Assembly (NCBI GenBank): GCA_035555975.1
Contig: DATMFV010000135.1
Coordinates: 1-64,000, forward strand
Source of the DNA: Chthoniobacteraceae bacterium
GTDB lineage: Bacteria > Verrucomicrobiota > Verrucomicrobiia > Chthoniobacterales > Chthoniobacteraceae
Reading direction: 5' to 3'
DNA: 64,000 nt
A model generated the notes under the pieces. It was not told the DNA's origin, did no database searches, and saw only the letters and a list, made by a program, of their open reading frames with translations. The position numbers and the translations under genes are program-made. Each line of letters opens with the position of its first letter. Within the stretch, counting starts at the first letter, position 1. Of this stretch, positions 3,147-43,314 are shown piece after piece.

Positions 3147-4241
3147 TCAGGCGGGCGTCAAGGGATGCCCGACGGTTTCGCGAACGACAAGGGAGGGCAA
3201 AAACGCTTCGTTCCGGTCGGAGAGGGTTTCATTGACGATCAAACTCGCCGCCCGCAGGCCGATGTCGACCCGAGGCCGTGAGATCGTCGTCAGGCGGGGA
3301 GGACCGCAAAGCGTCGGTGGAAATTCGAGTTCCTCGGCATCGTCGTACCCGAGCACGGAGATCTCTCCCCCCGGCTTGACGCCATGGCTCTCAAGGTAAT
3401 CAGCCACGGCCCGCGCGAAACTGTCCGAGTTGATAAAAAGGCAGCGGCCCGCCTCTCCCCGCGCCCGGAGTTTCTTCAACAGGTCGGCGGCGACCTTTCC
3501 GCTTCTCCAGGCGTACGGAAGATCGTAGTGGGGGTCGTAAAAATCCTTCATTTCCGAAACCTCCATCCCCAGCTTTTTCGCTTCCTCCATGAAGCCGAAG
3601 ATCCGCCCGTTCCACCGTTCCTCGCGGACCCAGTAGGCCAGAAGCGTTACTTTGCGAAAGCCCCGCTCGTGAAGGAACCGTGCCGCAAGGCGGCCGCCGT
3701 GAAAGTCGTCGATCACCAGCGAGTGAAAATCTTCCAGCGCCTCGAACAGTGCCAGGCGCGGCACCCCGGAGGCGACGATGGTGGCCGCCTCTTCGGGGCT
3801 GAGGTTGCGCCCCAGCACGATCAGGGCATCCACCAACCGGGGCGGCTGCACGAACTTCTGCAACTCCTTGAGATCGCCCGCCTTGAAGTAGTAGAAACCG
3901 AGGTGGTAGCCAGCCTTTTCCAGTTCATGTTGCAACCTGCGCAGGATCGGGAAATGAAGCGGGTTGTAGTAACTGAACTGCTGGTTGATATGAAAGCCGA
4001 CGTTCATCGTCTTTCGCAGGATCAACCCCCTGGCGGCAAGGTTCGGCTTGTAGCCCATCTCACTGGCAAGGGCGCGGATCTGTTCAAGCGTCTCGGGGCT
4101 GATCCGGTCGTTGGATTTCTTGCGCGGCATCAAGGCACGGGAAACCGTCATCGCCGAACAGCCCGCCCGTTTTGCGATCTCGTAAATGGTGACCCGCTTC
4201 TCCGCCTTGGGCCTCTTCTGCTGCGTCGTGGTCTGGTTCAT
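3147..4241 (-). CDS. LacI-family transcriptional regulator. An alternative upstream start lies at 4289.
   Basis: N-terminal HTH KRVTIYEIAKRAGCSAMTVSRAL, followed by a periplasmic-binding-protein-like sugar-binding fold. Confidence 0.8.
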   Translation of the reverse strand: MNQTTTQQKRPKAEKRVTIYEIAKRAGCSAMTVSRALMPRKKSNDRISPETLEQIRALASEMGYKPNLAARGLILRKTMNVGFHINQQFSYYNPLHFPILRRLQHELEKAGYHLGFYYFKAGDLKELQKFVQPPRLVDALIVLGRNLSPEEAATIVASGVPRLALFEALEDFHSLVIDDFHGGRLAARFLHERGFRKVTLLAYWVREERWNGRIFGFMEEAKKLGMEVSEMKDFYDPHYDLPYAWRSGKVAADLLKKLRARGEAGRCLFINSDSFARAVADYLESHGVKPGGEISVLGYDDAEELEFPPTLCGPPRLTTISRPRVDIGLRAASLIVNETLSDRNEAFLPSLVVRETVGHPLTPA

Positions 4242-4314
4242 CCGTAGTGTTGGGCTCGCGTCGAGTGGCGATTGAACCCTGAAAGACAATTCCCCTGCAA
4301 CCCTTTAACACCCT

Positions 4315-5166
4315 TTAACGCTTGCGACGCCGGAGCCACCGGGCCGAGCCAAACAGCACGACCCCTGCGCCGAGCAGCCCGAGCGTCGCCGGTTCGGGAA
4401 TGGGAGCAGGCACCGAAAAATTGTCGATGGCGCTGACACCGCGATAGATGGAGTTCGCCGCCGTTCCAAAAAAGGCATGGACTTCGTCGCCGGCCAATGC
4501 CGACATATCCTGCGACTCAGGGGTGGTGAAAGTATGGGTCGAAATCGCCATCGGTGACCCTCCCTCTCCACCGAAAGAATAGAGCGTGACGGCCACGGTA
4601 TAGCGCTTCTCCTCCGACGAGTAAGTCACATCGCCCGAAAGCTGATACCACTCTCCGCTGGTCAGCGTCACGTTCTGCTCGGACGGTCCCTGGAAATTCT
4701 CCGAGACCCCTCCCGCCACGCTGTTGCCGACGATTCTGATGGTATCTCCGGCAGCCACCCTGCCAATCCCGAAATAGACCTGATTCTGCTCCACCGAAGG
4801 AGAGCTGCCGCCGCCTCCATAAAATGGCGCGTAAGTGGCGCTGGGACCAAACCCGATGAACGCTCCATGCCCGGCGCCGGAAACCGCCGTTACCCATTGG
4901 AATGAGATGGAGAGGGTGAAGGAAACATCCCCGGCAAAGCCGTTCTTCAACACCAGGGTCGAAGCCCCGCCACCATTGTTGGCGGCAACGCCACCGGTCG
5001 ACCCGATGCCCGCATTGGCTCCCCAACTCCAGGTCGTCCCTCCGGTCGAATTGAAATCCGCCATCTGCGACACTTCATTGAAGTCGTAAAGCGTCCGGGC
5101 CGTTGAGGCCGGTTGGACGGCCATCCATCCAATGGCCACACAAAAGAGAAGGAGTGGTTTCATCAT
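4315..5166 (-). CDS. PEP-CTERM domain protein (exosortase substrate).
   Basis: Signal peptide MMKPLLLFCVAIGW; a Gly/Ser/Thr-rich body; the C-terminus IPEPATLGLLGAGVVLFGSARWLRRRKR is a PEP motif, a transmembrane helix and a basic tail. Confidence 0.8.
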   Translation of the reverse strand: MMKPLLLFCVAIGWMAVQPASTARTLYDFNEVSQMADFNSTGGTTWSWGANAGIGSTGGVAANNGGGASTLVLKNGFAGDVSFTLSISFQWVTAVSGAGHGAFIGFGPSATYAPFYGGGGSSPSVEQNQVYFGIGRVAAGDTIRIVGNSVAGGVSENFQGPSEQNVTLTSGEWYQLSGDVTYSSEEKRYTVAVTLYSFGGEGGSPMAISTHTFTTPESQDMSALAGDEVHAFFGTAANSIYRGVSAIDNFSVPAPIPEPATLGLLGAGVVLFGSARWLRRRKR

Positions 5167-5224
5167 GGGGAAAAAAGAAGGAAGGGGTTTAAGGGGGCGG
5201 ATCCAACAGCCTCCAGTGTCTGCC

Positions 5225-5304
5225 CTGAATGCGTTATGGATAACGCATTCAGTTTATATCATTACGAAGCGGTTGGAATGGCGATTGCGTTATCCATAAC
5301 GCAA
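5225..5304. promoter_or_regulatory. Two operator-like palindromes sharing a GCGTTAT-N2-ATAACGC core, upstream of the PEP-CTERM/LacI/secreted-protein gene string.
   Basis: 5225-5252 CTGAATGCGTTAT-GG-ATAACGCATTCAG is a perfect 13+2+13 palindrome. 5285-5304 TTGCGTTAT-CC-ATAACGCAA is a perfect 9+2+9 palindrome. Confidence 0.5.
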
Positions 5305-5373
5305 GAGGCCATTTACGTCAACGTCTCTTTTTGTAAAAATAAAATCCGACGAGTCTCCGAGGGCGAAAAGAAT

Positions 5374-20416: not shown

Positions 20417-22150
20417 GTGGGTATTTCGATCAGCCAGGCGTATTCCCGTCTCCGCCCCCTGCTCGGGTTGACCGAGCAGGTGACCGTCATTCCGGCGGAT
20501 CGGAAGCTCTCCCTCGCCAATCCCGCGTTCAAGCTCCTCTACTTTTTTGCGGGCGAGGTGGAGCTGGTGCTCGGCGACGGCAGTTGCCACGCGATCCGGC
20601 CCGGAGATGTGGTGATCGCCCAGCCGCAGCCCAAAGACGAAGGGTACCACTACCGCCGGGGAACCGATGGAGGCACCCGCAACCCCGGGAGCCTTCATGC
20701 GCTGATCATCCAGTTCGACCTCACTCCCTCTCCTTCCGACCCGGGAGGGGAACTGGCCCTCTGGCTGCGCGAAACCTTCCGCACCCACCGACACTGGCCG
20801 GCCGCCTCGACGGCACGAGGGGGTCAGTCAACAAATCTTGACAAAACCTGTCGAGCCTGTCAAGATTTGTTGACTGACCCCTACCCGCTTTGGGAAAACG
20901 CCATCCGCATCCGCCAGGCGTGCGCAAGCCGGAACCGGTGGATGCGCCTGCTGGCGTGCGAACTCGCACGGCTGATGCTGCTCCGCCTTGCCGTGGCCGT
21001 CGGCCAGGAGGAGCGCCCGCCCGCTCCGCCCGGACAGGAACGGCTGGAGGCACTCTGCCGGGAGATGTTCATCTCCAACGCCCTCCCCCGCGATGGCGGC
21101 GACGAATCGCTTTTTGAACGTCATTTCGGCTTTGGCACCTCCGAGTTCCTCCACCGGCTCCGCGTGAATCGCGCCAAATCGCTGCTGCTCAACTCGAGTA
21201 CGCCGATCGGGGAGATCGGGGCGCAGGTCGGCTTCGCCTCGCCGGGGACTTTTTCGCGCGTTTTCCGGTCGATCGCCGGGCTTTCGCCCAACCAGTACCG
21301 CCGAGGGCATTCGGCCAACCGGCTTTTCTCGATCAAGAACGAATCGCCGCACAAACTCAAACTGCCTTCGCCGGGGGAACACCCGCAGCCGTGGGAATGG
21401 CAGTTTCGCTCCCGCGCCGCGACACTTTCCGGGAAAACGCCCCACCTTGTGATCGCCCTGGAGGGAGAGGCTACCGTGGAACTCCCCAAGGGAGAGACCC
21501 GTACGCTCCGCGTCGGGGAAAACAGCCTGCTCCTGACCGCGAAACCGACCCGCATCCGGGGAAGGAGCTTCCGGATCGCCCTGCTCCCGCTGACCGGCTT
21601 CCGGGGGCGGGTTCACCTTGGAAAGGCGATGCACCCTGCCGGTTGGAAGTGGCTTGAACGCGACCTTGCCGAATCGATCGGACCGCTGCGCAACGCCCTT
21701 TCGCACAAGCCAAAAGGCCGCCATGAACGGCTCCTCCTTCATTCGTTGACCAGCACGCTCGTTTACCACAGCCTCGGGCTGGCGGAAGAACCGCTTCCCC
21801 CAGGCGAAGGCCCCGGCTGTCGCTCCCGCAATGAATTGCTGGCGGAATCGGCCAAGGAATATATCTCCAAATATTACCCGCGCCCGTTGACCCTCGGAGA
21901 GATCGCCTATGGGGTGGGAGTCAGCGAAGAACACCTCGCCCGCCTCTTCCGCGCCACCACCGGGATGAGCGTCATGCGGTTTCTCTTTGTCCAACGGGCT
22001 AAGGAGGCCAAAAGACTCCTTGGGCGCACCCGTTATCCAATCGCCGAGATCGCGTGGCGGTGCGGATTTCAGACGCTGGGCCACTTCTACCGCACCTTCC
22101 GTTCCGTGCTCGGGGAGACGCCGGGGGCCTTCCGAGCACGTGAAAAATAA
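20417..22150 (+). CDS. AraC-family regulator made of two complete tandem AraC units (cupin-like + HTH, then cupin-like + HTH) in one 577 aa ORF.
   Basis: Unit 1: LLYFFAGEVELVLGDGSCHAIRPGDVV (cupin) … FGFGTSEFLHRLRVNRAKSLL…SPGTFSRVFRSIAGLSPNQYRR (HTH). Unit 2: HLVIALEGEATVELPKGETRTL … LTLGEIAYGVGVSEEHLARLFR…GFQTLGHFYRTFRSVLGETPGAFR. Confidence 0.7.
   Translation: MGISISQAYSRLRPLLGLTEQVTVIPADRKLSLANPAFKLLYFFAGEVELVLGDGSCHAIRPGDVVIAQPQPKDEGYHYRRGTDGGTRNPGSLHALIIQFDLTPSPSDPGGELALWLRETFRTHRHWPAASTARGGQSTNLDKTCRACQDLLTDPYPLWENAIRIRQACASRNRWMRLLACELARLMLLRLAVAVGQEERPPAPPGQERLEALCREMFISNALPRDGGDESLFERHFGFGTSEFLHRLRVNRAKSLLLNSSTPIGEIGAQVGFASPGTFSRVFRSIAGLSPNQYRRGHSANRLFSIKNESPHKLKLPSPGEHPQPWEWQFRSRAATLSGKTPHLVIALEGEATVELPKGETRTLRVGENSLLLTAKPTRIRGRSFRIALLPLTGFRGRVHLGKAMHPAGWKWLERDLAESIGPLRNALSHKPKGRHERLLLHSLTSTLVYHSLGLAEEPLPPGEGPGCRSRNELLAESAKEYISKYYPRPLTLGEIAYGVGVSEEHLARLFRATTGMSVMRFLFVQRAKEAKRLLGRTRYPIAEIAWRCGFQTLGHFYRTFRSVLGETPGAFRAREK
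20820..20881. repeat. Perfect 24-bp inverted repeat with a 14-nt spacer, embedded in the AraC ORF.
   Basis: GGGGTCAGTCAACAAATCTTGACA-aaacctgtcgagcc-TGTCAAGATTTGTTGACTGACCCC. The arms are AT-rich relative to the surrounding sequence. Confidence 0.8.
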
Positions 22151-43243: not shown

Positions 43244-43292
43244 TTGACAAAAAGCTGAACCGTTTTAGTATTTAGCTAAATCGGTTCAGCTT
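43244..43292 (+). promoter_or_regulatory. Sigma-70-like promoter (TTGACA-16-TAGTAT) overlapped by a 16-bp-arm imperfect palindrome, upstream of the LacI gene at 43315.
   Basis: AAGCTGAACCGTTTTA-gtatttagc-TAAATCGGTTCAGCTT; 15 of 16 arm positions are complementary. Confidence 0.45.
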
Positions 43293-43314
43293 TCATCGTT
43301 TTCCGCCCCTTTCC

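Follow-up and report, generated by a model that had tools for sequence, protein, structure and literature searches.

How a perfect palindrome of 62 nucleotides (nt) came to lie inside the reading frame of a bacterial regulatory gene is the question raised by a locus on contig DATMFV010000135.1 of assembly GCA_035555975.1. The stretch analyzed comprises positions 1-64,000 of the forward strand, and the term window refers here to all of these 64 kb. The palindrome occupies positions 20820-20881, within a gene for an AraC-like double regulator (Table 1). In our view it is very probably a miniature non-autonomous element, made of two terminal inverted repeats (TIRs) of the TIRtron kind that are joined with their GGGG ends outward and inserted in frame in the AraC-type regulator. 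In this study, we describe the repeat family of the arms, the transposase that goes with it and the relatives of the regulator without the segment, and weigh this explanation against exaptation, a classical miniature inverted-repeat transposable element (MITE), an operator or recombination site evolved in place and an assembly artefact.

The palindrome and the repeat family of its arms

A preliminary description of this DNA had reported a flawless inverted repeat of 24 base pairs (bp), 62 bp with its spacer, whose arms are AT-rich in a GC-rich gene and which is translated in frame within the open reading frame (ORF) of the AraC regulator. All of this was confirmed. The 24-nt arms are complementary at 24 of 24 positions (100%), with 14 nt between them and 62 nt for the whole palindrome; the G+C content of the arm is 46% by our own count vs. 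63-72% in the flanking segments of 100 nt; and the ORF reads through the palindrome as GGQSTNLDKTCRACQDLLTDP. Among the inverted repeats within 200 nt reported for the window, the palindrome ranked first and was the strongest by far. By our own estimate, a sequence of 64 kb would be expected to contain about 5e-8 perfect inverted pairs of 24 nt within 200 nt by chance, and at three or fewer mismatches the arm had no match in any dinucleotide shuffle of the window. The same description had proposed several checks, among them other genomic copies of the arm, orthologous AraC genes and the energy of the RNA fold. The last of these gave -54.1 kcal/mol for the palindrome (z = -7.5, with none of 200 shuffles as good), and the fold as single-stranded DNA gave -27.6 kcal/mol (z = -10.6).

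To retrieve further copies, an exact 21-mer from the arm was used, scanning one genome per species. It matched 92 stretches from 56 assemblies, and these 92 stretches contain 168 copies of the arm at three or fewer mismatches. Nearly all of the 56 assemblies belong to Verrucomicrobiota (Chthoniobacterales, Udaeobacter, Terrimicrobiaceae, 'Spartobacteria' and the isolate Chthoniobacter flavus Ellin428). Over the 167 copies with enough flank, from 92 loci, the 24-nt core is conserved at 86-100% per position; outside the GGGG end there is a bias to AA[T/A]A, and on the inner side of the core no conservation was seen. Both arms in the window are identical to the family consensus. The number of copies per assembly among the fetched loci is 1-28, a lower bound that counts only loci with the exact 21-mer. 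Within Chthoniobacterales, the group of the window organism, the 24-nt family is scattered in low to moderate numbers of copies. Doublets of different genomes have spacers that are unrelated to one another, and an approximate search among the fetched loci yielded no relative of the window spacer. A 26-mer spanning that spacer had 0 matches in metagenome contigs, so the exact doublet of the window was not seen as a multi-copy sequence; the 21-mer had 0 matches in viral contigs, and thus there is no sign of phage-borne spread. Exact TIR copies were also encountered on short contigs of metagenome-assembled genomes (MAGs) labelled Acidobacteriaceae, Dormibacterota, Xanthobacteraceae and Angelobacter (loci L039, L052, L072 and L028), with a full TIRtron at L039; these off-clade copies represent either mis-binned Verrucomicrobiota contigs or horizontal transfer.

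Copies of the family are mostly extragenic and avoid long ORFs. On its shorter side a copy has a median of 21 open codons vs. 61 for random positions of the same loci, and 60 or more open codons in both directions were found for only 10% of copies vs. 51% of random positions. Among 132 copies with enough flank there was no other clean in-frame intragenic copy, and the remaining long read-through ORFs around copies look non-coding. In-frame insertion therefore appears rare in this family and the window copy unusual. In two further cases a TIR lies at the edge of a truncated gene: at L051 (1800-2030) an O-methyltransferase gene ahead of the element is left with its dimerisation domain only, and at L046 (2099-2122) an SF1 helicase gene behind the element is left with its C-terminal AAA_12 part only. 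Both are disruptions or gene edges, and the family can break genes or mark points of rearrangement.

The enzyme associated with the repeat is found in longer units of the same family. At 11 loci, copies of the TIR on the + and - strands stand 1057-1121 nt apart (1.06-1.12 kb), and most of these 11 pairs enclose a single intact ORF of 339-363 amino acids (aa). The ORF starts about 30 nt past the left arm; its start codon is preceded, at a distance of about 30 nt, by the TTGACA of the left TIR, and its stop codon TGA, following ...VK[I/N]C, lies inside the right TIR. Pfam Y1_Tnp matched four of the proteins (E 8e-11 to 7e-7), the match at E 8e-11 lying above its cut-off. The best NCBIfam model was REP_Tyr_transpos (E 2.4e-17; 63 bits, under the cut-off of 80 bits), and the NCBIfam IS200 model reached 20 bits vs. 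a cut-off of 55. The sole match in the Protein Data Bank was 4ER8, the TnpA-REP of E. coli; it covers the HuH and Y---NP motifs, HYH aligning to HMH and DYIHLNP to DYIYINP. About 200 aa extend beyond the Y1 core, with no Pfam match to a helix-turn-helix (HTH) domain even at E up to 5.

These features correspond to a class already named in the literature. According to the available portions of Di Nocera et al. (2013, PMC3733652), some genes that resemble those of RAYTs (tyrosine transposases associated with repetitive extragenic palindromes, or REPs) are flanked not by REPs but by TIRs with the motif GGGGWSAS; the units are called 'TIRtrons' and the enzymes 'TIRYTs', and the TIR families are moderately abundant and often form dimers. 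The outer end of our arm, GGGGTCAG, fits this motif (GGGG[AT][CG]A[CG]). As far as the available text of Quentin et al. (2018, PMC6006769) goes, the TIRYTs equal subclass 2.1 of TnpA-Y1, and Group 1 of the RAYTs of Bertels; they are long proteins whose C-terminal extension resembles an HTH (Bac_DnaA_C, HTH_23 or HTH_28), and Y---NP marks class 2 (RAYT-type) among the Y1 proteins. In our loci, transposases with only 45-83% identity to one another (L016, L021, L039, L060, L069 and others) are bordered by 24-nt TIRs that either match exactly or show 1-3 differences. From these alignments the TIR appears far more conserved than its transposase, in a comparison biased by the exact 21-mer search that found the loci.

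Shorter members of the family share the topology of the 1.1-kb unit. Among pairs of copies within 500 nt of each other, 23 have their GGGG ends outward vs. 1 inward. The sizes of short elements cluster at 90-100 nt and at about 209 nt, while further ones range up to 450 nt, and the window copy, at 62 nt, is the smallest of the series. Pieces of the transposase gene remain in some mid-size elements (L004, L028), so that the short forms have the appearance of a deletion series derived from the 1.1-kb unit. No direct target duplication was found at 36 paired copies, whose flanks show only a symmetric A/T-rich bias; this is consistent with a Y1 mechanism and speaks against a MITE of the DDE type. 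Two compact doublets of nearly the size of the window element were met in a metagenome (Table 1). In that of L094 the complementarity reaches 31 bp with a 3-nt loop, and a degenerate copy of the TIR lies just upstream (position 4490, 6 mismatches). A different arrangement occurs at L005 (998-2545), where nine TIR copies lie in about 1.5 kb beside an assembly gap, four on the + strand and then five on the - strand, with C-terminal transposase fragments between them.

Table 1. Coordinates of the palindrome, its host gene and the compact doublets of the same repeat family
Feature	Position	Strand	Description
Host gene, AraC-like double regulator	20417..22150	+	577 aa; two units, each with a beta-rich N-terminal part and then HTH_18
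Effective insertion	20819..20881	+	63 nt, exactly codons 135-155; encodes GGQSTNLDKTCRACQDLLTDP (21 aa)
Flanks of the 63-nt segment			...ACGGCACGA on the left, TACCCGC... on the right
Left arm	20820..20843	+	TIR copy GGGGTCAGTCAACAAATCTTGACA, 24 nt, GGGG end outward; equals the family consensus (167 copies with enough flank, 92 loci)
Spacer	20844..20857	.	AAACCTGTCGAGCC, 14 nt; hairpin loop
Right arm	20858..20881	-	inverted second TIR copy, + strand reading TGTCAAGATTTGTTGACTGACCCC; 100% complementary to the left arm
Compact doublet, L094	4524-4588		65 nt, metagenome Ga0164313; almost no spacer, apparently non-coding
Compact doublet, L095	376-440		65 nt, metagenome Ga0164313; almost no spacer, apparently non-coding

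The host gene and its relatives without the segment

Pfam matched the 577-aa protein with HTH_18 (E 3.7e-40, in two stretches) and HTH_AraC (E 2.5e-25). The palindrome had been described as the linker between a cupin domain and an HTH domain; the HTH part of this description stood, there being two HTH_AraC/HTH_18 units, but the cupin label did not, as the N-terminal match to Cupin_3 is below threshold (E 0.0017; 18.4 bits vs. a cut-off of 23.5). The insertion falls in a stretch of variable length after the first beta-rich part, between Arg134 and Tyr156 and in phase 0. A structure predicted by AlphaFold2 from an alignment of three sequences had a mean pLDDT (predicted local distance difference test score) of 49.8, with about 31-33 at residues 131-160, and is too poor to place the insert.

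Three relatives were obtained from the protein database. One is identical to the host protein and has been recorded on two contigs, one from JGI and the other, a MAG contig of 131 kb, from NCBI/ENA/Logan (HWL54879.1, Chthoniobacteraceae); this identity places the host within the clade that carries the repeat family. P0002 is 58% identical over 100% of the length, and P0003, from Chthoniobacteraceae, is 29% identical. The double AraC-like architecture in one polypeptide, unusual for the AraC family, is also present in P0002 (564 aa) and P0003 (596 aa). The gene of P0002 is syntenic, its contig L001 having the order MlrC-type peptidase gene, hypothetical gene and double AraC gene, as in the window; on L001 a TIR copy at six or fewer mismatches was not found.

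P0002 and P0003 align with the host protein over their full length with a gap precisely at the palindrome, and in the DNA alignment the gap at the palindrome is 48 nt. The distance from the HW to the LW motif is 30 aa in the window protein vs. 14 in P0002 and 7 in P0003, and because of these differences we regard the stretch as naturally variable in length. The segment is thus absent from both orthologs. Together with the many copies of the arm across Chthoniobacterales assemblies, this favours the MITE-like option among those that the preliminary description had listed.

The same description had noted, correctly, that 62 bp is not a multiple of three, and had held that a simple insertion would have shifted the frame. 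Removal of the 62 nt alone does shift the frame, but the puzzle disappears when one flanking base, a G, is included, which makes 63 nt and a whole number of codons. The ORF stays intact without 20819-20881, reading ...STARYPLW... with the junction between R and Y, and likewise without 20820-20882, reading ...STARDPLW...; the former version restores the YPLW motif found in P0003. On each strand one of the three frames is open across both arms, and the other two meet a TGA within an arm. The host uses the open frame, which is expected if selection retained only a survivable insertion. The encoded peptide includes C-R-A-C, a CxxC motif that comes from the spacer and the first codon of the right arm. 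Judging from the intact ORF, the strong scores of both HTH units and the collinear orthologs, the regulator is probably still functional.

Origin of the palindrome and alternative explanations

The mechanism of transposition that we propose is drawn by analogy with IS200/IS605 and with the TnpA-REP of E. coli (general knowledge and PMC6006769). At the replication fork, where DNA is single-stranded, the doublet would form a hairpin, and a transposase encoded elsewhere in the genome would cut and re-join it in trans, with no target duplication. One such insertion may then have added the 63 nt, or 21 codons, at the site given above. Its survival could be explained by the poorly conserved, length-variable stretch in which it fell, by the whole number of codons and by the use of the sole stop-free frame. 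That both arms still equal the family consensus suggests that the insertion is recent. The window element is a REPIN-like doublet (REPIN, REP doublet forming a hairpin), tolerated in a variable stretch of protein, and to judge from the sequence comparisons the palindrome did not evolve in place.

A number of observations weigh against this explanation. A single arm by itself forms a stem of 5 bp (-2.2 kcal/mol, z = -1.55; 19 of 200 shuffles were as good), and direct reading finds no GTAG or CGTC tag on either of its strands; because of the weak hairpin and the missing tag, the arm is classed as a TIR rather than a typical or classical REP. The copy number of 1-28 is low vs. the hundreds of classical REPINs. 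Elsewhere in the window there is no second copy of the arm or of its 17-nt core at three or fewer mismatches and none of the full arm at seven or fewer, and a tblastn search with a TIRYT protein found no transposase gene in the window (best E 0.21). The nearest ortholog is just 58% identical, and so the exact boundaries of the insertion and its one extra nucleotide have to be deduced. The C-terminal HTH reported for subclass 2.1 had no Pfam match in our transposases. Finally, in the available portions of PMC3733652 and PMC6006769, the mobility of TIR doublets by TIRYTs lacks experimental proof.

The alternative closest to a tolerated insertion is exaptation, in which a copy of the mobile family is now retained for a function, as an RNA stem, as a bound DNA palindrome or as a CxxC peptide. 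The RNA stem of 24-25 bp might tune expression as a site for RNase III or for ribosome pausing, a host protein might bind the DNA, or the CRAC peptide might confer some property. REPs in E. coli affect mRNA stability, the RNA fold of the palindrome is very stable, the encoded peptide contains its two cysteines, and arms that are perfect and identical to the consensus fit selection as well as recency. A recent insertion, however, explains the perfect arms equally well, the two orthologs work without the segment, and no other sampled copy is cleanly in frame, so that there is no sign of recurrent co-option. Nor did the scan for promoters and terminators give a terminator-like or promoter-like site at 20820-20881; the sequence after the palindrome, TACCCGCTTTGG, has no U-tract; and Rfam 15 gave only generic matches of hairpins to microRNA models (22-28 bits vs. 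gathering scores of 61-150), none reaching its threshold. We consider exaptation unlikely. Somewhat less likely still is a specific form of co-option, in which the stem in the middle of the mRNA would act as a switch through RNase III or ribosome stalling (controlling regulator levels or separating the N-terminal sensor part from the remainder), or in which the 21-aa CRAC peptide would act as a redox- or metal-sensitive hinge. Either version, if true, would document a RAYT/TIRYT-type repeat as the source of a novel function, regulatory or at the protein level, within a transcription factor. An attenuating RNA hairpin, which had also been suggested, finds no support as a structure evolved in situ, and an intrinsic terminator was rejected: the arms are the consensus of a mobile family, and neither a U-tract nor any promoter-like or terminator-like site accompanies them.

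The remaining alternatives concern where the palindrome came from. A classical MITE would be a deletion derivative of a DDE insertion sequence, moved by cut-and-paste with target-site duplication, and the 24-nt TIRs of typical length, the small size and the size series would suit it. But the only gene between full-length TIR pairs is that of the Y1/HUH transposase, and the 36 paired copies carry no direct duplication; a MITE of the DDE type is hence largely refuted and its probability very low. Of the earlier proposal of a MITE-like element domesticated into the linker, the MITE-like character is kept, on account of the many copies and the absence from orthologs, whereas the classical MITE falls away and the data support tolerance rather than domestication. 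An intragenic operator or a recombination site had been suggested as well; it would have evolved in place for the AraC regulator, for example as an autoregulatory site, and a perfect dyad with TTGACA/TGTCAA half-sites inside a regulator gene is what such a site might look like. This origin is extremely improbable, since the identical 24-mer occurs in unrelated contexts in 56 assemblies and flanks transposase genes; moreover, orthologs lack the segment and there is no second copy near promoters in the window. An operator, an attC-like site and other recombination sites were rejected on the ground that the same 24-mer is dispersed and tied to a transposase. An equally remote explanation is a fold-back or chimeric join produced in metagenome assembly. 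The window does appear to derive from a MAG, but the frame is preserved, the arms equal the consensus of many independent assemblies, and an assembly artefact is disfavoured because the identical protein was recorded from both the JGI and the NCBI/ENA/Logan contigs.

If the palindrome is, as we think, an inserted TIR doublet, then an eye-catching intragenic palindrome would be what a known class of mobile DNA ordinarily produces, and no operator or riboswitch would have to be chased at this locus. The 24-nt TIR family is thereby documented in Chthoniobacterales, including Chthoniobacter flavus Ellin428.

Two other groups of inverted repeats in the window may be recorded here. The intergenic region 5167-5373, upstream of a gene for a PEP-CTERM-type protein (4315-5166, - strand), contains two copies, at 5230-5250 and 5283-5303, of the 18-bp palindrome TGCGTTAT(GG/CC)ATAACGCA, about 35 nt apart; the ORF of a LacI-type regulator (3147-4289, - strand) lies two genes away from this pair, which looks like a pair of candidate operator sites. 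At 43251-43293 there is an A/T-rich hairpin of 18 bp with 94% complementarity, AAAGCTGAACCGTTTTAG / CTAAATCGGTTCAGCTTT, which is not terminator-like and overlaps a sigma-70-like promoter match at 43244-43271 (TTGACA, 16 nt, TAGTAT; 10/12).

Comparison with published repeat systems

The family described here most resembles the TIRtrons and their TIRYTs. The likeness includes a RAYT-like Y1/HUH enzyme with a long C-terminal extension, flanking TIRs with a GGGG[AT][CG]A[CG] end, a right TIR that overlaps the 3' end of the gene, and repeats of low to moderate copy number that occur as dimers or clusters. In the available portions of Bertels et al. (2017, PMC5581495), the 16-mers that flank Group 1 RAYTs are scarce (about 12 occurrences), which agrees with the 1-28 copies per assembly found in this study. 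The Chthoniobacterales family of 24-nt TIRs is not named in the portions available of PMC3733652, PMC6006769 and PMC5581495, and the in-frame intragenic copies described there are GTAG and CGTC REPs, not TIR repeats. The series that leads from the 1.1-kb unit through deletion derivatives to the 62-nt doublet would offer test material for the putative mobilisation of flanking repeats by TIRYTs, or Group 1 RAYTs.

REPINs and their RAYTs (Bertels & Rainey 2011, PMC3116915; PMC3337134) likewise combine an inverted pair of short repeats and a short spacer into a long hairpin; their repeat flanks a single Y1 transposase gene, most of their copies lie outside genes, and the doublet is regarded as the unit that is mobilised in trans. 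Our family differs from them in that the unit repeat, with its 5-bp stem, is no clear palindrome and has no GTAG or CGTC tag, in that there are tens of copies and not hundreds, and in that the window copy is intragenic. IS200/IS605 elements (for example IS608) provide the mechanistic model used here, with a Y1/HUH transposase acting on single-stranded hairpin DNA without target-site duplication, but their ends are subterminal hairpins rather than TIRs, and the protein found here has the Y---NP of class 2 (RAYT). Classical MITEs such as Correia, ERIC and Nezha are also small, TIR-bounded and non-autonomous, and sometimes lie in frame in genes (PMC10969869); they differ in their origin from DDE insertion sequences and in their target-site duplications, neither of which holds for the 24-nt TIR family.

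For the position of the doublet within an intact gene, the nearest parallels are intragenic REPs and the Rickettsia palindromic elements (RPEs). According to the available portions of PMC3733652, intragenic REP dimers encode 20-30 aa and are known from several species, including Thauera, with most of the GTAG cases in the verrucomicrobium Opitutus terrae; RPEs are the classic example of an in-frame palindromic insertion (PMC10969869; PMC3733652). In both, as here, a palindrome lies in frame in an intact gene, and the REP dimers add about 20-30 residues, here 21. The repeat families are unrelated in sequence, and RPE-1 is about 150 bp long with no known transposase. The insertion of a repeat in frame with the addition of residues is in any case a known and already documented kind of event, and the in-frame TIR doublet of the AraC-like regulator would be a further example of a repeat insertion that lengthens a variable part of a bacterial protein.

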